Source of the DNA: Candidatus Poribacteria bacterium
GTDB lineage: Bacteria > Poribacteria > WGA-4E > WGA-3G
Direction of reading: 5' to 3'
DNA: 64,000 bases
NCBI GenBank assembly: GCA_028820845.1
Contig: JAPPII010000004.1
Coordinates: 20,314-84,313, forward strand
Made by a program: the position numbers and the translations under genes. Positions 29,442 to 38,350 of this stretch are shown piece after piece. The notes beneath the pieces are model-generated. The model searched no databases. It was not told where the DNA came from and was given only the letters and a program-made list of their open reading frames with translations. Positions within the stretch are counted from its first letter, which is position 1. Each line of letters begins with the position of its first letter.

Positions 29442-29864
29442 ATTATATCACCCCATGAGCAGAATTGAATTGACATAAGAGTGTAGACGAAACCGGTTTG
29501 CAATGCAAGCGAAAAATAATCCATCATTTGTATACTTTGCAGACGCGCCACTTTCACTTCTAACATGCCGGCTCTTTCTTCCTGTAGGAGCGAGCTGTGC
29601 TCGCGACTTTTTTATCTCCCGATTTAAAAACTAATCTTCACCAAAATTAGTAGGCGAGGTTTCTAACCTCGCCGGTTCTCAGTCCACGATATAAACATTT
29701 CCCATTCATGCTTGCTCATAGTGCCTTGATAATTCTAAAATCTACTGCAACGACCTTCGGAAATTTGACACTTATTTGCATATTGTGATATACTTTGTAT
29801 ACCAACAGCCAAAATCAAACGTTGTATTTTCTATACATATACTTTGCTGGAAGGGACAAAATTT

Positions 29865-31271
29865 ATGACAGAGGCACCGTACAGCATCTTTGATTCACGC
29901 ACTCCTGACGATATCCACCATGAGATTCAAAAGGTTTATCTTGAAAACGCCCGACCATGGGTCATCGGATACAGCGGCGGAAAAGACTCGACGACTGCAC
30001 TTCAACTGATTTGGTATGCCCTTGCTGAATTGCCGCCAGAACAAAGGAAATATCCGGTCTACGTGATTTCATCTGATACATTGGTTGAGACACCGGTGAT
30101 TGTGAGCTACATCACTGGCACCTTAGACCGTATCGAGACGACTGCCCGCGAACAAAAGATGCCGTTTCAGACGGCCCTCGTCCGTCCAAAGACGGAAGAT
30201 ACCTTCTGGGTGAATCTCATCGGCAAAGGTTACCCTGCCCCGTATACACGCTTCCGGTGGTGTACGGACCGAATGAAAATCCAGCCAGCGAATCGGTTCA
30301 TATTGGAAAAAGTTGCTGAACACGGTGAAGTTATAATGGTTCTCGGGGTTCGCAAAGGTGAAAGTGCAACGCGCGATCAAGTCTTAAGTTTGCACCGTAT
30401 GAAAGATTCGCTCCTTTCACGACACACGACGTTACCCAATGCTTTTGTTTATACGCCTGTGGTCGATTTTACCATGGAAGACGTGTGGATGTATCTGTTA
30501 TCCAATCCCTCCCCGTGGGGCGGTGATAATCGACAGTTGGTGACACTCTATCGCAACACGAGCGCGGAAGGTGAGTGTCCTTTGGTGGTTGACGAGACAA
30601 CGCCATCTTGTGGAAACAGCCGCTTTGGATGCTGGACCTGCACTGTTGTAACAAAGGATAAAGCGATGGAAGGCCTAATTGATAGCGGGGAAGATTGGAT
30701 GCTACCCCTGCTTGAATTCCGTGACTTTCTTGCTGAGACCCAAGATCCTGTAAGGAAACCTGAAGTCCGCGAGCATCGTCGACGGAATGGACAAGTTATG
30801 ATCCTCAATAACAAACTTGTCCACGGTCCCTATACGTTGGACTTTTGCAAGGAACTCTTAACAAGACTTCTCACAACCCAGCAACAGGTTCGTAGAGACG
30901 GACCTGACCCAGATATCAAACTCATCACGGACGACGAGCTCGAAGAGATACGCAGGATCTGGCGAACCGAACGCCAAGATTGGGAAGACGCTGTCCCACA
31001 AATCTACACTGAGATTGTTGGAGACCGCGATTGGATCGTTGATAATACCCTCTCCTTTACTGAAAAGGATAAAGATATTTTGGAGGCGATCTGCAATGAA
31101 AACGGAATCCCTGTTACCCTTGTTGCAAAATTATTGGACACAGAGCGACAGATGGATGGAATGAGTCGACGTGCTGGAATACAATCCCGAATTGACGAGA
31201 TATTCCATGAGGATTGGCGTTCAGAAGAAGAAGTCCGGGCCGGTTTAGATAACGGTGATTTCCAACAATGA
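29865..31271 (+). CDS. dndC: DndC-like PAPS-reductase-fold ATP pyrophosphatase (DNA phosphorothioation protein DndC family).
   Basis: PP-loop WVIGYSGGKDSTTALQLIW. DndC-type Cys cluster ...ECPLVVDETTPSCGNSRFGCWTCTVV.... The ATG at 29865 is preceded by ggaaggg. A TTGACA-N18-TATACT promoter candidate lies at about 29776-29806. Confidence 0.8.
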   Translation: MTEAPYSIFDSRTPDDIHHEIQKVYLENARPWVIGYSGGKDSTTALQLIWYALAELPPEQRKYPVYVISSDTLVETPVIVSYITGTLDRIETTAREQKMPFQTALVRPKTEDTFWVNLIGKGYPAPYTRFRWCTDRMKIQPANRFILEKVAEHGEVIMVLGVRKGESATRDQVLSLHRMKDSLLSRHTTLPNAFVYTPVVDFTMEDVWMYLLSNPSPWGGDNRQLVTLYRNTSAEGECPLVVDETTPSCGNSRFGCWTCTVVTKDKAMEGLIDSGEDWMLPLLEFRDFLAETQDPVRKPEVREHRRRNGQVMILNNKLVHGPYTLDFCKELLTRLLTTQQQVRRDGPDPDIKLITDDELEEIRRIWRTERQDWEDAVPQIYTEIVGDRDWIVDNTLSFTEKDKDILEAICNENGIPVTLVAKLLDTERQMDGMSRRAGIQSRIDEIFHEDWRSEEEVRAGLDNGDFQQ

Positions 31272-33295
31272 TTATCCACAAGCTCACTCTTAACAATATT
31301 GGTCTGTTCCGCGGGACACAAACTATTAATCTTACACCGAACGGCAAGGGCCCCATAATCCTTATTGGCGGGATGAACGGGGCTGGTAAAACGACGCTCT
31401 TAGACGCAATTCGTCTTTGTTTGTACGGCAGGCGGTCCCTTGGGAACCGCGTCAGCCACAATGAATATTATGACTATCTCTCTTCATTGATTCATCGCGG
31501 TTCTGATTCAACAATACCTTTGAATCACGCTGCTGTATCACTTGAGTTTGAATATGCACACAGTGGAGAAACGAAACAATACCGTATTGAACGCACATGG
31601 CAACGGTCTGGCTCAAAACACCATAGCGTTAGCGAAGGTTTGACAATCTCCGAAAATAACTGGTTGAATACCGAATTTGACGCGGAACATTGGCAGGATC
31701 GTATTTATGAGTTTATCCCTATTGGGGTCTCCCAATTCTTTTTTTTCGACGGTGAGGACATCCAAAAATTGGCAGACGACTCCAAGCACGACCTATATCT
31801 CGCTGAGTCAACCAAAGCGTTGCTTGGGATAAACTTGGTGGAGCGATTACAATCGGATTTGCGTATCTACGCGAATCGTCTCGTGAAGCGTGATAGCCCT
31901 GAACCGGTCCAGAAAGAAATTGTGGAAGTAGAAGCAGAAATTGCTACGCTTGAGTCTGCACTCAGAGATACATACGTACGTGCAGAAGCTTTGGACATTC
32001 AAAGTGAGAAACTGGAAAACCAGATTGAGAGACAAGAATTGATCATTGCAGCCGAAGGTGGAGGTTATGCAGCGAAGCGAGAAAGCCTGAAAGTACAACA
32101 GGGACAGCTTCTTGCTGATATTGAGGCGTTGGAGACTGATATCCGAGACCTATGCGGTGAACTGTTTCCGTTTGCCTTAGTCCCTGATCTGCTCAAGAAA
32201 CTGGAAGATCGGCTCCTTAAAGAGATTGAATTAGACGAATGGGAAGCAAAGAATCTCGCCTTAGAATCTGTCAACACTGAAGTACTTAAGACCTTGGCAT
32301 CTGCCGCATTTTGGGATAGTGTCTCTTTACCTGAACCACAAATTGAAGCAGTTCGTTCCAAAATCACGCCATTCCTGAAAACCCAACTTGAAAAAACAAA
32401 ACGTGAACAACCAGAGACACTTCGCGGCTTCAAGAAGATCCGGGACCGCTCTCCTTCGGAGTACGGTCACCTATTGGAGTGGATTGATGCCTGCCTTAAT
32501 GAAGTGCCTCAAGAATTTCGTGAGTTGAATGATACATTAGCAAAAGCACAATTAGAACTGCAAAAGGTGGATCAGGACCTTCAGAAAGTCCCAGCCGAAG
32601 AGGTCTTGAAACCACTGATCGAAAAATTGTCCCTGTCAAATCAAGAACTTGGACAACTCCATAAAGAGGAACAAGAGGCAGAACAATCTATCAAATCTTT
32701 AGAGTATCAACTTGAAGTGGCAGAGCGAAAATTGGATAAACTGCGTCACACACAACAATTAGGAGAAGCACACGTCCAACGTCAACAACGCGTAGAAAAC
32801 GTGCAATCGGTGCTTTCTGCTTACACAACACGGTTGACCCAAGCTAAAATCGCTACATTGAGTGAGGCCATTGTACAAGGTTTTAATCAACTTTCACATA
32901 AACCCGATCGGATTAGACGCGTTGAAATTGACCCCCTGACCTTTGCTGTGACGCTCTATGATACCCAGAATCGCGCACTACGAAAAGAGAAGTTATCCGC
33001 GGGTGAGAAACAAATTTACACAACTGCCCTTTTATGGGCATTAGCGAAAACATCAGGTAAGGCATTACCGATGATTCTTGACACCCCGCTTGGACGTTTG
33101 GACAGTAGTCACAGACGACTTCTTATTGAACGTTATTTTCCGTATGCGAGTCATCAAGTTGTTCTGTTGTCAACCGACACCGAGGTCCAGGGATACTTGC
33201 GTTCGCTATTGGATCCCTACATTTCGCGTACTTTCCACTTGGTGTATCAACAAGTTGAAGGGTATACGACAATAAAGGAAGGCTATTTTGGGTAA
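31268..33295 (+). CDS. dndD: DndD-like SMC/ABC-type ATPase (DNA sulfur modification protein DndD family).
   Basis: N-terminus MIIHKLTLNNIGLFRGTQTINLTPNGKGPIILIGGMNGAGKTTLLDAIRLCLYG is the characteristic DndD start with Walker A. Long coiled-coil middle region. C-terminal signature and Walker B ...LSAGEKQIYTTALLWAL...PMILDTPLGRLD. The start overlaps the dndC stop (ATGA). Confidence 0.85.
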   Translation: MIIHKLTLNNIGLFRGTQTINLTPNGKGPIILIGGMNGAGKTTLLDAIRLCLYGRRSLGNRVSHNEYYDYLSSLIHRGSDSTIPLNHAAVSLEFEYAHSGETKQYRIERTWQRSGSKHHSVSEGLTISENNWLNTEFDAEHWQDRIYEFIPIGVSQFFFFDGEDIQKLADDSKHDLYLAESTKALLGINLVERLQSDLRIYANRLVKRDSPEPVQKEIVEVEAEIATLESALRDTYVRAEALDIQSEKLENQIERQELIIAAEGGGYAAKRESLKVQQGQLLADIEALETDIRDLCGELFPFALVPDLLKKLEDRLLKEIELDEWEAKNLALESVNTEVLKTLASAAFWDSVSLPEPQIEAVRSKITPFLKTQLEKTKREQPETLRGFKKIRDRSPSEYGHLLEWIDACLNEVPQEFRELNDTLAKAQLELQKVDQDLQKVPAEEVLKPLIEKLSLSNQELGQLHKEEQEAEQSIKSLEYQLEVAERKLDKLRHTQQLGEAHVQRQQRVENVQSVLSAYTTRLTQAKIATLSEAIVQGFNQLSHKPDRIRRVEIDPLTFAVTLYDTQNRALRKEKLSAGEKQIYTTALLWALAKTSGKALPMILDTPLGRLDSSHRRLLIERYFPYASHQVVLLSTDTEVQGYLRSLLDPYISRTFHLVYQQVEGYTTIKEGYFG

Positions 33296-33588
33296 TACTA
33301 AAATTTGGACAGTTCGTTTTGTTTCAAGTTGTGTTTTCCAATACCTCGGTGTTTTTCAGCAAGTTTTCCTAAAGGTGTAGTTCGCCAAAAAACAGGATTT
33401 CGGGTGAGAATATAAGCAACCCTTGCAGAATGCCACACGCGCATTCTGCATTGATTCCGGGGTGACATGTGTCATAAAATCTGAAGTAGGTGTCAAAAAA
33501 TTTGTGTTCAATTCAACTGCCTCACGGGAATTCTTAAAATTGTCCAAAGTTTAGTAAATCTATACACAAGTAGGGAAACAACATATTA

Positions 33589-34575
33589 ATGAAAAAGATA
33601 CGTAAAAGGACAATAGGATCTGTTAAGTCAGAACTTCTTGCTAAGGCACGAGAGGCAGCTTTATGTGCTATCCAAATTTTCAATTCCCCTCAAATTTTCT
33701 TCAAATCAGAGACTTTTATAGTCCTTATGGTAATAGCATGGACCTATATGCTTCATGCTTACTACAGATCTAAAGGTATCGAATACCGGTATTATAAACA
33801 GAGAGGTAAGAGAAAATCCTTTGAGCGAACTAAACATAAATCTTATAGATATTGGGAACTTGAAACCTGTTTAAGGCGTGATGAGTGCCCAATTGACATT
33901 AACACAACTAATAATCTTCTATTTCTGATAGGGCTCCGTCACGAAATTGAACATCAAATGACTCGTTCACTTGATAACTATCTGAGTGGCCACTATCAAG
34001 CATGTGCTCTGAACTTCAATCACTACATGAAGGAACTCTTTGGAGACAGATATGGCATCGATGATCATTTGGCATTCAGCATCCAGTTTATGAAACATTC
34101 GGAGGAACAAATTCTTGGTTCCAAGCCTGAGCCAAATATTCCAGAGCATCTACAAACTTATATTACTGAATTTAATGCTAGCCTAACCGAGGATCAGCGT
34201 AACAGTGAAAATTATGTAATCCGGCTAGTGTTCCGACCAAAGTTAGTTAATCGCCCGGGGCAAGCAGACAAGGTTATTGACTTTGTTAAGCCTGACTCAG
34301 CAGCTCCTTTTGAAGATAACGGGACATTGTACGTAACAACAAAGGAGATCGAACGTCCTAAACTCCTCCCTTCCGCTGTGGCGGCAAAGGTGCAAGAAGC
34401 AGGTTTTAAAAAGTTCAGGACTCAACCAGAGCATGTCAGGATGTGGAAAGCAGAAGATGCAAAGAATCCCAGCAAAGGATATGGCGTTGAAGTGCAAGGT
34501 CAATGGTATTGGTATGAATCTTGGGTTAAACGCTGTCTTGAATTGTGTAAAGCAGCTGGCGATCTTTACCGTTGA
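33589..34575 (+). CDS. Hypothetical protein with a HEPN-like R-x4-H motif; possible abortive-infection-type effector.
   Basis: LLFLIGLRHEIEHQMT contains RHEIEH (Rx4H) inside a predicted helical region. No other family recognised. AT-rich codon usage typical of the island. Confidence 0.35.
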   Translation: MKKIRKRTIGSVKSELLAKAREAALCAIQIFNSPQIFFKSETFIVLMVIAWTYMLHAYYRSKGIEYRYYKQRGKRKSFERTKHKSYRYWELETCLRRDECPIDINTTNNLLFLIGLRHEIEHQMTRSLDNYLSGHYQACALNFNHYMKELFGDRYGIDDHLAFSIQFMKHSEEQILGSKPEPNIPEHLQTYITEFNASLTEDQRNSENYVIRLVFRPKLVNRPGQADKVIDFVKPDSAAPFEDNGTLYVTTKEIERPKLLPSAVAAKVQEAGFKKFRTQPEHVRMWKAEDAKNPSKGYGVEVQGQWYWYESWVKRCLELCKAAGDLYR

Positions 34576-34616
34576 GAGACCAATCGAGTGTTAAATAATC
34601 CTTAAGCCATTCGTAG

Positions 34617-35573
34617 TTACTTTCTAAAAGCTTCCTCACGATGCCACGCCAAAGCATCTTGAGCCGGGTAAAGTGCGTCGTGTTCAGGCAACAATATAGT
34701 CTTCTCGCTCAGTTGAGTTAGCATCCACTCCGTTGGTCTTCTTTCTGACATGAGTACAGAGACAATAACTTGATAGGTCTCGTTCAAAGAAATTAAGCCT
34801 TTGTCAAAAGCCCAATGGTGCAATTTGCAAAGCGAGATTCCATTCCGCACATCGTCATTTCTTGAAATACGAAATGGAATGATGTGCGCGGCATCAGTCG
34901 CACTTTCCCCATCCATTGTGACAATGCGTAACCGACAAACAGCACAAGTATAATCGTACATTCTCATAATTGCTTGACGAAAGCCCGCAGTACGAATTGG
35001 ATTCTCTCTTTCAATTGGTGCTATCGGTTGCTGGGATGAAAATGTCTGTTCGACCTGTCGGATCAGCAACTGTCTGTACTCTCCAATTTGTTGTTCTTCT
35101 GTAATGAGGCTTTTGATCGCTTGCTCGAATTTAGAGAAATAGGTGTGAATAAGCGTTTGACGGAGAACCTCTCGATCTCGCGGGGTAGTGAGCAAAACAA
35201 AAAGCTCATCATCTAAACTTGCGTATGCAACAACTTCCCGAAGGCGGGATATTGATGTAATTCTACTCCTAACACTCAGGGCTTTTTCGTAACCAGCGTT
35301 TGGATGAAGGTGCCAGAAACCTCTGCCCGTTAGATGAAAAAATGGCAGAGCAATATTAGGTTTTCGATCTGTTACTACCTTCGTCCAATATTTCAGGAAA
35401 GTTTCTGCCAAATCTGGAGACAATAGTACTTTATTTTCCTGAATTTGTCCTTGCTCAATCAGTGCGATAATGACTAACAGAAGAAGCGGTTGGTGGGGTG
35501 CCGCACCATGTGCTCGGTCTATCCGCAAGCTTTTGAATTTTTGGACGTATTTTTGTAGGATAGTATTAGCCAT
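34617..35573 (-). CDS. HNH endonuclease with an about 200-aa N-terminal domain of unknown type (possibly a DNA or modification reader).
   Basis: C-terminal HNH: YDYTCAVCRL...DAAHIIPFRISRNDDVRNGISLCKLHHWAFDKG. Confidence 0.75.
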   Translation of the reverse strand: MANTILQKYVQKFKSLRIDRAHGAAPHQPLLLLVIIALIEQGQIQENKVLLSPDLAETFLKYWTKVVTDRKPNIALPFFHLTGRGFWHLHPNAGYEKALSVRSRITSISRLREVVAYASLDDELFVLLTTPRDREVLRQTLIHTYFSKFEQAIKSLITEEQQIGEYRQLLIRQVEQTFSSQQPIAPIERENPIRTAGFRQAIMRMYDYTCAVCRLRIVTMDGESATDAAHIIPFRISRNDDVRNGISLCKLHHWAFDKGLISLNETYQVIVSVLMSERRPTEWMLTQLSEKTILLPEHDALYPAQDALAWHREEAFRK

Positions 35574-35782
35574 CTTTTTACTGATACTGTGTTAAGTAAG
35601 ACTGGCAATTTTCTGGTGTCGGGTGTGAGACCGCAACCTATTTTTCACTAATACTGTGTAGCTTAAACACGGGGTATAAAAGTCTTTGACAAGATCTGCT
35701 CCATCGGAACGATATTCGTATTTTAACGAGATTTCTTTGAGTGATATAAAAGTTTTTCCAAAAAGTTAACTGTTTTCTAACA

Positions 35783-35845
35783 CCACAATTTTAACATATT
35801 TTGTAAAAAAATTCAAAATTTTCCTGACCGCTATCAAAGTCTACT
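35783..35845 (-). promoter_or_regulatory. Promoter/operator copy A, upstream of the HNH gene. Reverse strand reads TTGAAT-N17-TTAAAAT.
   Basis: About 55 bp nearly identical to 37738-37800: cacaattttaacatattttgtaaaaaaattcaaaattttcctgacc against cggcaattctaacatatttcgtgaaaaaatgtcaaaattttcctaac. Confidence 0.6.
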
Positions 35846-35956
35846 AATCCTGAAAATCCTGATTCAGATGATTAACGCCTCCCATTGTAAATGCAGAGTA
35901 GCAATTCTGTTGGCTACACGCCTCTATCATGAAATTAGAATCAATAAAGCCGTAAC

Positions 35957-37219
35957 TTACAAGACTCTTTTCGGTAATTGAACCTGGTTCGTCTCTTGTT
36001 CTAATGCCTTAGCATAATCCTCGCGTAATTTATTTACATCCCCCGAAAATTGATTCAGCATATAGAATAACAAATTTTTAGCGAGCGTCTTACCTTTTAT
36101 GATCATCTTTTTTTTTGTAGGGTGCCAGATGATACCATTATAGGGGACTTGGGTCAGGTCTGTAGGTAATTTTGAAAGCATCTTGAAACATTCAGGGAGT
36201 GGATACTTCTCTGCAAGTACCGCGATGACTTCTGTTAATATCTTGAGACCTATAGGACGAAAAAGGACGCTGCCTCCGTCTGAATGTCTATATTTCTTAA
36301 CAACTGTTGAATTGTCAGATGTATTAGCAAATTCCTGCAAGGGTAAAAAACTATTTGTAAGGCGTTTAAAGTAATCACAAGCATTGTCGTAATGCTGATT
36401 GAGAATCTCATCTGATTGGCGTATTTTCGTGAGTTCATCTTTTTTCTCTTTAAGTGTCTTTCTTTTTGAGAGGACGTATACTTTGGTAAAGAGTATGTCT
36501 AACAGATCGTAAAGATTCCCAATCGTCGTGAGACAGGTCTGATTACTTTTTGGGATACTATCGGGCACATTGTTTAAAATTCGTGGGTCCATAAACATCG
36601 GATTTCCCGCAACCAACCGTCGGACAATAATAGCTATCGTATCGTTCTCATCAAGAGCGATAATTTCTCCTTTTGAAACCCGGACAGCATTTTTATTTAA
36701 AGTCGTGAAAAGCCTCCGGCTCCTTTCCACTCCTTCTATATCCGTTCTGTGCGCGATGAAAATAATAGACAATTCCTCTTCGCCCAATTGTGGGTTCTCT
36801 GTTACAGCTGCTTTAATTCCTATGAGGCGGTGTTGCCCATCTAATGTGAATAGTTTTTCTTCTCCGTTCAGACTTAGAATTCCGATCCCCGCGACTACAT
36901 CTTCTGGAATCTCTTCAGGATCCAATTGGTTGTTGCTCTTGATATGGGTAATATCATACCAGCTGGGGTCGCCTTCATAGGCTGCGACAATCAGCGAATT
37001 AAAAAAACGTTGTTCCTGTTTTAAGAGATAATCTCTTATCTCGTTCCCTCGTTTTCTTTTTATCTCTCGTTGTACCATCTCGCTCAAGGTTTTGCTTTGG
37101 TAAATTTCCTCAGCAATTTTAACCCTTTCAGCGATGTCTTTAAGTTTCATGAGGGTAGGGTAATAGACCCAATCACCCACTATGCCTCTTAGCGACGGAA
37201 GATATAATTTTTCCATCAT
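35957..37219 (-). CDS. dndB: DGQHR-domain protein (DndB family).
   Basis: ...KLFTLDGQHRLIGIKAAV... contains the DGQHR motif. The N-terminus MMEKLYLPSLRGIVGDWVYYPTLMKL is typical of DndB-like proteins. Confidence 0.75.
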   Translation of the reverse strand: MMEKLYLPSLRGIVGDWVYYPTLMKLKDIAERVKIAEEIYQSKTLSEMVQREIKRKRGNEIRDYLLKQEQRFFNSLIVAAYEGDPSWYDITHIKSNNQLDPEEIPEDVVAGIGILSLNGEEKLFTLDGQHRLIGIKAAVTENPQLGEEELSIIFIAHRTDIEGVERSRRLFTTLNKNAVRVSKGEIIALDENDTIAIIVRRLVAGNPMFMDPRILNNVPDSIPKSNQTCLTTIGNLYDLLDILFTKVYVLSKRKTLKEKKDELTKIRQSDEILNQHYDNACDYFKRLTNSFLPLQEFANTSDNSTVVKKYRHSDGGSVLFRPIGLKILTEVIAVLAEKYPLPECFKMLSKLPTDLTQVPYNGIIWHPTKKKMIIKGKTLAKNLLFYMLNQFSGDVNKLREDYAKALEQETNQVQLPKRVL

Positions 37220-37716
37220 TTTAGTCCTTTGATTATGTCTCGTACTTCCGCTGAATATCCTCGTTCAACGAAAGGTGGTGTGAAGGTATCTAATAGCATG
37301 CGCTCTAGCTGTTTTAAATCCATCTCGGTTGGATCTACTTCGACGTAATAAAAATACAGATAGTTTTCCCATGTATTTAGCATAAGGTGAATACGTCTTC
37401 TTTTGGGATGCTGTTTGTAATAGAGATAATCTCTAAATCTTTTTTGTAAGTCCCGCTCGCTCTCATGTCCTGTTTGTCCGAGGTATACTAAATAACCATG
37501 CGCTGGAAAATTACCAATTCTGGGTTCAATGAAAAAAGCGTAAATTCCCTTCTCAGTAGGGATCTTATTCGCGTTGTTTCTTTCAAACTTTACGCATTGC
37601 CAATCTAATGCAATCCGTGGGGCAGTGTAGGTATCCCACTGTTCTTTCCAAAGAAAAAAGGATCTTTGATAAATACTTACATCTTTTTGCTGATCAATTG
37701 GATCTTGGTATACCAT
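37216..37716 (-). CDS. Small GIY-YIG-like nuclease domain protein, translationally coupled to the DGQHR gene by a 4-nt overlap.
   Basis: EKGIYAFFIEP...HGYLVYLGQTGHESERDLQKRFRDYLYY parallels GIY...YVGKAKDLKKRLSSY of GIY-YIG nucleases. The GIY-to-YxG spacing is longer than usual. Confidence 0.45.
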   Translation of the reverse strand: MVYQDPIDQQKDVSIYQRSFFLWKEQWDTYTAPRIALDWQCVKFERNNANKIPTEKGIYAFFIEPRIGNFPAHGYLVYLGQTGHESERDLQKRFRDYLYYKQHPKRRRIHLMLNTWENYLYFYYVEVDPTEMDLKQLERMLLDTFTPPFVERGYSAEVRDIIKGLK

Positions 37717-37737
37717 AACGTCTCCTAAAGCGGTTTA

Positions 37738-37800
37738 CACGGCAATTCTAACATATTTCGTGAAAAAATGTCAAAATTTTCCTAACACTACCAAAATCCG
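37738..37800 (-). promoter_or_regulatory. Promoter/operator copy B, upstream of the GIY-YIG/DGQHR operon. Reverse strand reads TTGACA-N17-TTAGAAT.
   Basis: Same 55-bp element as 35783-35845. Confidence 0.6.
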
Positions 37801-37922
37801 CGTCATCCGTGCAATCCGCGTTATCCGAGATTTGCGGCGTACTCGCCCAAAAGCGACGTGCATTCAGACGAAAAAAAATCCTAATTCCGACAGACAACCC
37901 ATAACTTATAACCCATTTTTAC

Positions 37923-37951
37923 TTGACATCCGTTAGCAAAAAGAGTATAAT
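37923..37951 (+). promoter_or_regulatory. Perfect consensus sigma70-type promoter TTGACA-N17-TATAAT with no ORF within about 500 bp (orphan).
   Basis: acTTGACAtccgttagcaaaaagagTATAATat. Confidence 0.6.
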
Positions 37952-38321
37952 ATATCATTAAGATTTCCAAAGAGGTGAATAGCGTATCAAACTATAGCCG
38001 ACAGCCAATTGCCAACAGCCAACAGCCACAAAAAAATGTTACACTTTTGGCAAAATTGCGTTTTTTCGCATAACAGAAAATCGAAAGTAAAACGTCTACG
38101 AACCCCGACACCCACTGGGTTCTCTTACGGTATAGGCAACACACCAAATGTACACCGGTGTAACATTAGTGTAACATTTTTAACGCAAATTGCTGAAAAA
38201 TATACCGTTAAGTTAAAACCGTATTCACGCCCGTATGATCCTGTGAATCCTTGAATCCTGTCCATCCGCATTCTGACAATCCGCTGCCAAAATATTTAAA
38301 CACCCCTCCAAAATTTTATAT

Positions 38322-38350
38322 TTGACAAATTTCTGGGAAAAATGTAAAAT
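38322..38350 (+). promoter_or_regulatory. Promoter TTGACA-N17-TAAAAT for the secreted paralogue pair.
   Basis: tTTGACAaatttctgggaaaaatgTAAAATat, 125 nt upstream of the ATG at 38475. Confidence 0.6.

Follow-up and report, generated by a model that had tools for sequence, protein, structure and literature searches.

A translationally coupled gene pair for a GIY-YIG-like protein and a DGQHR protein, probably a conserved module of DNA-phosphorothioation systems

When a gene labelled "hypothetical protein" in RefSeq runs directly into one labelled "DGQHR domain-containing protein" or "DndB", do the two encode a functional unit, and what might that unit do? The question is raised by a locus in a 64,000-nucleotide (nt) stretch of DNA from Candidatus Poribacteria (the window, whose numbering is used for all window coordinates), in which a 166-amino-acid (aa) open reading frame (ORF) with an ATG start (37216..37716, minus strand) is followed on the same strand by a 420-aa ORF whose translation contains LDGQHRL (35957..37219). 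The original prediction saw in them a minimal GIY-YIG-like nuclease coupled to a DndB-family regulator of the dnd clusters, together forming a possible sensor-effector pair. PADLOC recognizes DndB alone in the large protein and nothing in the small one. The comparisons described here indicate that the GIY-DGQHR pair probably makes up a conserved module of two proteins within DNA-phosphorothioation (PT) systems.

The proposed coupling is seen directly in the DNA: the two minus-strand ORFs share a 4-nt ATGA stop/start overlap (37216..37219, read as TCAT on the plus strand), in which the TGA of the 166-aa gene shares bases with the ATG of the 420-aa DGQHR gene. An AGGAG Shine-Dalgarno motif (37722-37726, minus strand) lies 5 nt ahead of the ATG of the small gene, and an AAGGA ribosome-binding motif (37225-37229, minus strand), located within the GIY gene, lies 5 nt ahead of the DGQHR ATG. 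Approximately 30 nt 5' of the GIY start there is a sigma-70-like promoter (TTGACA-18-TAGAAT with a TG extension; 37774..37745, minus strand), a consensus match only, with 11 of 12 positions matched. The pair in the window is intact, with its own promoter-like site. As judged by comparison with its relatives, the small ORF is a real gene and not a chance ORF, because its homologues agree with it in length and start and its ratio of nonsynonymous to synonymous substitutions (dN/dS, omega) is low. In particular, 80 close homologues are of equal length and conserve Met1, and the closest relative gives a dN/dS of 0.09, while more distant ones, for which dS is largely saturated, give 0.13-0.24.

The 166-aa protein very likely belongs to the GIY-YIG superfamily, as profile comparisons and a predicted structure both suggest. 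The Pfam GIY-YIG model PF01541, whose gathering cut-off is 22.6 bits, gives the window protein 19.6 bits (E 1.2e-3), just under that cut-off, and is matched by 35 of 45 close relatives at E <= 0.01 (best E 9.8e-7). No NCBIfam or PADLOC model matches the 166-aa protein or any of the family members tested. An exhaustive family profile search returned 733 representatives (clusters at 50% identity), 494 of them at E <= 1e-10. The best 150 of the 733 are all small stand-alone proteins, mostly of 160-180 aa (range 123-245), without a single fusion (0/150), and most of them align over almost their full length. In a diverse set of 130 family members, at about 30% identity to the window protein, the Pfam matches were to PF01541 (24 members), PF20815 (17) and PF22945 (one), all of which are GIY-YIG-type models; no family of another type was matched by more than one member. 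When a profile of these 130 members was compared with the sequences of the PDB (E <= 10), only N-terminal GIY-YIG domains of UvrC were found (1YD6, E 0.033; 1YCZ, E 0.041), with GVY, YIG and R-x3-Y in register; in the alignment of hidden Markov models (HMMs), R93 and Y97 correspond to R39 and Y43 of T. maritima UvrC. A narrower profile of close relatives gave Sfi1p, a spurious match, as its sole PDB match.

The residues expected of a GIY-YIG active site are invariant or nearly so. Y59, Y78, G80 and R93 are present in 130/130 diverse members, and G57, Y97 and E138 in 129/130 each, so that the catalytic Arg and Glu positions, on which the original prediction was open to attack, are retained. The GIY strand corresponds to G57-I-Y59 and the YIG strand to Y78-L-G80. 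The position of the conserved Asn that follows the Glu is more variable (N in 79/130, S in 26, V in 16), and the window protein has V150. Traits specific to the family are R106 and a 55-residue N-terminal extension (residues 1-55) with an invariant W39. An AlphaFold model built from the diverse alignment has a mean predicted local distance difference test score (pLDDT) of 95.6 and a predicted template modelling score of 0.89. Its predicted core (beta57-63, beta75-81, alpha90-102, alpha107-115, beta120-126, alpha134-145) follows the beta-beta-alpha-alpha-beta-alpha order of GIY-YIG domains; R93 and Y97 are placed in the helix 90-102 and E138 in the helix 134-145, an additional strand and helices precede the core, and a C-terminal helix follows it. 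Foldseek comparison with the viral predicted structures of BFVD gave matches with a probability of ~1.0 (E 1e-3 to 1e-2, template modelling score about 0.45-0.5), and the named high-probability matches are GIY-YIG domain-containing proteins, intron associated endonucleases or endonucleases.

The family thus resembles the N-terminal GIY-YIG domain of UvrC (1YCZ, 1YD0, 1YD6), with which P-x3-G-V-Y, Y-I-G, R-x3-Y and the Glu align, but it differs from it in a GIY-to-YIG spacer of 18 residues instead of the usual ~10, in the 55-aa N-terminal extension and in the lack of the UvrC partner domains; the E-values of this comparison (0.03-0.04) are marginal. From the retained residues, the 166-aa protein is predicted to be a catalytically competent GIY-YIG (URI) endonuclease. 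It is probably the same kind of gene as the URI/GIY-YIG nucleases noted in Dnd neighbourhoods, which were placed "at the boundaries", in some cases facing the other way, with a proposed role as suicide back-ups (PMC10853773).

The partner protein carries a DGQHR domain, as had been proposed (TIGR03187, 114 bits against a cut-off of 58.85; PF14072, E 1.2e-33), but is not canonical DndB. It scores only 73.7 bits against the DndB equivalog TIGR03233 (cut-off 328), and in five other loci the DGQHR proteins linked to a GIY gene score 46-76 bits; its scores for DpdB (11.7 bits; equivalog 300) and for TIGR04172 (DGQHR_dnd_1; 31.7 bits against 450) are low as well. One locus, L033 (loci fetched for comparison are denoted by L numbers), contains both kinds of protein: dndBCDE, beside dndA, begins with the gene for a true DndB (368 aa, 492.7 bits), and the GIY-DGQHR pair (169 + 419 aa) ends pbeABCD on the opposite strand. 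The partner is therefore not the dnd repressor, because it fails TIGR03233 and coexists with true DndB in L033, and the identification with canonical DndB was rejected. Moreover, the DGQHR gene is not the first gene of a dndBCDE operon; in the window and the poribacterial loci it is mostly convergent with dndCD(E), and in other loci it follows dndE or dndD or stands beside ssp genes.

In its motifs, the partner is like canonical DndB: it shares the PF14072/DGQHR domain, the QR, DGQHR and FxxxN motifs and the association with dnd loci. It is unlike DndB in being ~50 aa longer, in having more conserved motifs, e.g., YRHxxGGxxLFRPxG, and in always being accompanied by a GIY gene, which the canonical DndB of L033 lacks. 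Invariant in the family are Q50-R51, D127-G-Q-H-R131 and F171xxxN175, which are ParB/Srx-type motifs, and the partner keeps the Arg equivalent to R87 of DndI, a residue required for the ATPase activity of that protein (PMC11662687). By profile scores, it is a ParB/Srx-like paralogous subfamily distinct from canonical DndB, DpdB and TIGR04172. A PDB sequence search with the DGQHR protein found nothing relevant, and neither protein of the pair matched DUF262 or DUF1524 at E <= 1.

How constant is the association of the two genes? Both families were mapped onto the fetched loci by tblastn and HMMs, and a DGQHR gene of the same subtype follows the GIY gene on the same strand in 42/42 loci with downstream DNA, about 35 of which are non-redundant. 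The co-occurrence, which the original prediction proposed to analyse, is thus strict wherever downstream DNA is available. Most loci are from Ca. Poribacteria, and the hosts, which span at least six phyla or classes, also include Latescibacterota, Kapaibacterium, Gemmatimonadota, Colwellia, Rhizobium and Roseobacter. The GIY gene of the window shares 91% identity with that of L002, the window shows synteny with L026, and partner and gene order are unchanged from 29% to 91% identity and across phyla. The genes are immediately adjacent in all loci except L019; many lineages have the 4-nt overlap, and in most of the rest the genes are separated by about 3-45 nt. The ATGA-type overlap is shared by L001, L031, L033, L035, L038, L040, L041 and L043. 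The pairwise distances of the GIY and DGQHR proteins are correlated (r = 0.91). Where the pair is damaged, both genes may be affected together: in L023 (9998-10303) and L024 (10001-10417), one deletion spans both and fuses a GIY fragment to a C-terminal DGQHR fragment.

Individual loci show other rearrangements. In L019 (10001-12701), the GIY gene is truncated and a 1-kb insertion lies ahead of the DGQHR gene. In L004 (8626-13929), an additional full DGQHR copy is located 5' of the GIY gene and a DGQHR fragment 3' of the pair. Compared with the closest relative of the window (L002, 10001-11757), the GIY gene is 91% identical (dS 0.49) and the neighbouring DGQHR gene just 79% (dS 1.06); this difference therefore suggests a recombination breakpoint within or between the two genes.

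Throughout the examined loci, the pair is found in PT-system neighbourhoods, and these are of every PT type. Several arrangements occur with dnd genes. pbeABCD-GIY-DGQHR is convergent with dndCDE in L001, L003, L012, L016, L019 and L033, and the order is GIY-DGQHR-pbeABCD in L009. In L005-L008, L013, L014, L020 and L028, GIY-DGQHR precedes one or two SBD-HNH genes, and dndCD may or may not be close by; HNH proteins of this SBD (phosphorothioate-binding) type are the commonest neighbours of the pair in Poribacteria. In L026, dndCDE lies opposite GIY-DGQHR and genes for an SNF2 helicase, ParB_N, HTH_ParB and a 340-aa protein. The pair can also be part of the modification operon, either inside it (dndC-dndD-GIY-DGQHR-dndE::HerA in L021) or at its end (dndC-D-E::FtsK-GIY-DGQHR in L031 and L038).

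The pair is not confined to dnd clusters, the setting named in the original prediction, since it also adjoins sspABCD and sspFGH. It is found as GIY-DGQHR-sspB-sspC in L035, as sspBCD-GIY-DGQHR in L041, convergent with sspA|sspBCD in L040 and as sspABCD-GIY-DGQHR on the Roseobacter litoralis plasmid pROLI83 (L043), where the proteins of the pair are WP_187430180.1 and WP_187430181.1. On Rhizobium pTiK1_93 the order is GIY-DGQHR-sspF-sspG-sspH, with no modification genes within 9 kb, and in Colwellia the pair adjoins SspH. SIR2, PIN and RES toxins are encoded nearby in defence islands that contain the pair. The possibility that the pair is SspF or SspG was rejected: it has no such PADLOC match, and on pTiK1_93 it precedes bona fide SspF, SspG and SspH.

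Further genes accompany the pair in single loci. The four-gene module of L026 (9263-13236; also in L027), consisting of an SNF2/DpdE-like helicase, ParB_N, HTH_ParB and the 340-aa protein, for which no family match was found, lies between the pair and dndEDC and may be another candidate PT-linked restriction module. On pROLI83, genes for a phospholipase-D-family nuclease, an ATPase and a DEAD-box helicase, the last of which weakly matches PbeA, are convergent with sspABCD-GIY-DGQHR (L043, 10648-15072); these three genes may represent a further restriction module acting on the same PT mark. DndE is fused to a HerA/FtsK/TrwB-type ATPase in L021 (11765-13297), L031 (4268-5698) and L038 (3766-5262), where the pair directly adjoins the fusion gene; the L021 and L038 fusions, the two that were scanned in PADLOC, match the C-terminal translocase region of DndH/SspH.

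What the pair does may be approached through known systems of similar design. SspE and DndI are single chains that combine a ParB-like DUF262 NTPase with an HNH nickase (PMC9646914, PMC8092258, PMC11662687), and in both, PT-DNA stimulates the NTPase and controls nicking (PMC11662687, PMC9646914, PMC8092258). SspE joins a ParB/Srx-like NTPase module with a DGQ(Q/H)R motif to a nicking nuclease, a design like that predicted for the pair, and is encoded beside sspABCD, a position that is taken by the pair in pROLI83, L040 and L041. It differs in being one polypeptide with DUF262 and a DUF1524 HNH domain, whereas the pair consists of two proteins, a putative GIY-YIG nuclease and a DndB/DGQHR-type (PF14072) partner. 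DndI, encoded in an IscS-DndBCDE-DndI arrangement, likewise unites a ParB-like ATPase and a nickase, with canonical DndB alongside and a linkage to FGH-type restriction: dndI is co-transcribed with dndFGH, and DndI coexists with DndB (PMC11662687). The pair shares the last two traits, as it coexists with canonical DndB in L033 and precedes sspFGH on pTiK1_93. However, DndI is a single chain of DUF262 (DGQQR) and HNH that has a crystal structure and biochemistry, whereas the pair is split and carries a predicted GIY-YIG nuclease. The type IV enzymes GmrSD and BrxU are a more distant parallel; they also combine a ParB-like DGQQR NTPase with a nuclease, are sometimes split (GmrS, GmrD) and read DNA modification (PMC4619093). 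They differ from the pair in having DUF262 and DUF1524 HNH domains, modified-base targets and no link to PT systems (PMC4619093).

Because the ParB-like motif set together with a nuclease, the genomic positions and the coexistence with DndB and FGH match SspE and DndI, our favoured, though tentative, reading is that the pair is a split, URI-based analogue of these two effectors. In this mechanism, the DGQHR protein would be the ParB/Srx-fold DNA- and nucleoside triphosphate (NTP)-binding subunit, and translational coupling would ensure that the GIY nuclease is made in fixed proportion to it. The DGQHR subunit would read the PT status of DNA, NTP binding or hydrolysis would serve as the switch, and the GIY-YIG subunit would nick or cut DNA without the host PT pattern, acting alongside other restriction modules (SBD-HNH, PbeABCD, SspFGH). 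By analogy with SspE and DndI, we infer that the two proteins may form a physical complex with PT-sensing, NTPase and nuclease activities and a role in defence.

Several observations weigh against such a split effector. The window protein and its poribacterial clade carry Val at the GIY-YIG Asn position, and the Pfam score of the window protein itself falls below the gathering cut-off. Foldseek searches of the PDB with models of pLDDT 75 and 95.6 gave no significant match and no GIY-YIG structure, and an hhalign comparison of the family profile with I-TevI alone was insignificant, though in register. DUF262 finds no match in the DGQHR protein, nor was a PT-binding pocket identified there. Moreover, the pair lies inside the modification operon (L021) or ends it (L031, L038), and in Poribacteria it is constant beside dndCDE while the restriction modules vary, which fits a modification-side role equally well. 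Such a role, in which the DndB-like DGQHR protein limits PT and the GIY-YIG protein incises DNA for sulfur insertion or PT removal, so that the PT level is tuned, is a serious though unlikely alternative. The pair is also appended to sspBCD (L041, pROLI83), the poribacterial dndCDE loci lack canonical dndB, and tandem repeats lie just 5' of the pair's promoter; canonical DndB is a PT-limiting repressor (PMC4507180), and a 2024 reappraisal leaves a nuclease- or NTPase-linked role of DndB open (PMC10853773). However, L033 has canonical DndB as well as the pair, and the Ssp loci that bear the pair already own the SspB nickase. A modification-side role also sits poorly with pTiK1_93, where the pair heads the sspFGH restriction operon and modification genes are absent within 9 kb, and with loci in which the pair persists with SBD-HNH although dndCD(E) is missing or incomplete (the window, without dndE; L013, L017, L028). 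A variant of this idea makes the pair an editor of PT: the DGQHR subunit would find PT sites, and an NTP switch would direct GIY-YIG incision nearby, by which PT would be removed or limited. It is considered because the pair is tied to all PT types and is sometimes internal to the modification operon, its closest solved relative is the repair incision domain of UvrC and canonical DndB limits PT, and it is judged improbable. If true, the pair would be a dedicated eraser or limiter for both double-strand (Dnd) and single-strand (Ssp) PT systems, which could explain why PT occurs at only a minority of consensus sites.

The role proposed for URI nucleases that border Dnd loci (PMC10853773) leads to another explanation, in which a non-discriminating GIY-YIG DNase is restrained by the DGQHR protein and released as a back-up suicide effector when the main PT system is inhibited. 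The 166-aa nuclease-like protein has no recognisable DNA-recognition domain of its own, the coupled gene order resembles two-gene toxin-regulator modules, and SIR2, PIN and RES toxins occur in the same defence islands. Yet one specific DGQHR subfamily accompanies the nuclease in every locus, often within an operon and not in a loose border position, and the full NTPase-type motif set of the DGQHR protein suggests an active sensor over a simple antitoxin. A suicide effector, which would differ from the split PT-sensing effector solely in the choice of target (self or non-self), is therefore doubtful, more so than a role in modification. Least credible is that a selfish GIY-YIG endonuclease of the homing type, or a GIY-like fold without catalytic activity, lies upstream of the DGQHR gene by chance. 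The best structural matches are indeed phage intron-associated or homing GIY-YIG endonucleases, and the window protein lacks the Asn of the canonical set. But no NUMOD, IENR or other homing DNA-binding domains are present in these proteins of uniform size (~165 aa), the Tyr, Tyr, Arg, Tyr and Glu positions vary little or not at all, and the same partner and gene order recur from 29% to 91% identity across phyla. Strict pairing, co-divergence of the two proteins (r = 0.91) and purifying selection (omega 0.09-0.24) led to the rejection of a homing endonuclease or a chance ORF, and a selfish or dead element in general is very improbable.

In the window itself, the PT locus looks eroded or remodelled. 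Two intact plus-strand genes convergent with the pair were identified by family matches: dndC (29844..31271), for a sulfurtransferase of the PAPS-reductase type that has an Sp-DndD region at its C-terminus, and dndD (31268..33295), for an SMC/ABC-type ATPase. They are followed by a DUF3644 gene (33589..34575, plus strand), a match to the PADLOC candidate PDC-S19 (E 1.5e-140), which occupies the place of dndE in related loci; no dndE was detected by tblastn within the 64-kb window. Downstream of the pair and on the same strand lies a gene (34617..35573, minus strand) for a 318-aa HNH endonuclease that is ScoMcrA-like and of the phosphorothioate-DNA-binding type. Between the DGQHR and HNH genes, a gap of 383 nt contains a remnant of 29 aa from the N-terminus of a PbeA-type helicase (35661..35747, minus strand), with 76% identity to PbeA of L001. 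The remnant suggests an earlier GIY-DGQHR-pbeABCD arrangement, as in L009, in which pbeABCD was later replaced by the SBD-HNH gene. A PT-DNA-binding HNH enzyme here adjoins a possibly defunct PT writer. The region 31000-38000 is a low-GC island (38-45% GC, with the minimum over the GIY-DGQHR pair; 50-55% in the flanks), consistent with a horizontally acquired and often remodelled defence island. The flanking genes (FGE-sulfatase, 267-aa and 276-aa proteins, a GFO_IDH_MocA pair) are syntenic with those of L026-L029, and the gene content between these syntenic flanks varies among the window and the four loci.

Upstream of the pair, three to four tandem 9-nt repeats of the form NATCCGYGY (37795..37827, plus strand) are located 20-50 nt upstream of the -35 hexamer. 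Three of them are exact matches, a count reached in 0/100 shuffles, and the repeat is also found 5' of the pair in the poribacterial loci L020 (7523-7545) and L023 (9670-9692); the repeats may be a candidate operator. The same 760-nt intergenic region has several short direct and inverted repeats, and an Rfam scan found zero matches in it or elsewhere across the window. A sigma-70 promoter with a 12/12 consensus (TTGACA-17-TATAAT; 37923-37951, plus strand) is directed away from the pair, ~520 nt ahead of the next plus-strand ORF (38475), and a second site (11/12; 38322-38350, plus strand) lies nearer to that ORF.

As for novelty, a literature search combining DGQHR/DndB or phosphorothioate with GIY-YIG turned up nothing beyond a general reference to URI nucleases in the vicinity of Dnd genes, and neither the text nor the supplement of that work (PMC10853773) describes obligate pairing with a DGQHR protein or a link to Ssp. 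What is new here is the obligate coupling of the GIY gene to a dedicated DGQHR subfamily and its linkage to both Dnd and Ssp. The design of a PT module from a ParB-like NTPase and a nuclease is already known, so the pair is not categorically new; it carries another nuclease chemistry, with GIY-YIG in place of HNH. The idea is testable in cultured strains with Roseobacter litoralis pROLI83 and Rhizobium pTi plasmids. The known PT restriction partners are DndFGH, PbeABCD, SspE, SspFGH and DndI, and many dnd modules have no known partner. Similarly, 83.9% of sspBCD modules occur without sspE or sspFGH, and Wang et al. expected further partners (PMC8092258). A pair as widespread as this one (733 clusters at 50% identity), present on both Dnd and Ssp systems, would be one such missing partner and, if the proposed function is true, the "ParB-like NTPase plus nuclease" design would have come together independently with more than one kind of nuclease and also in the form of separate subunits.

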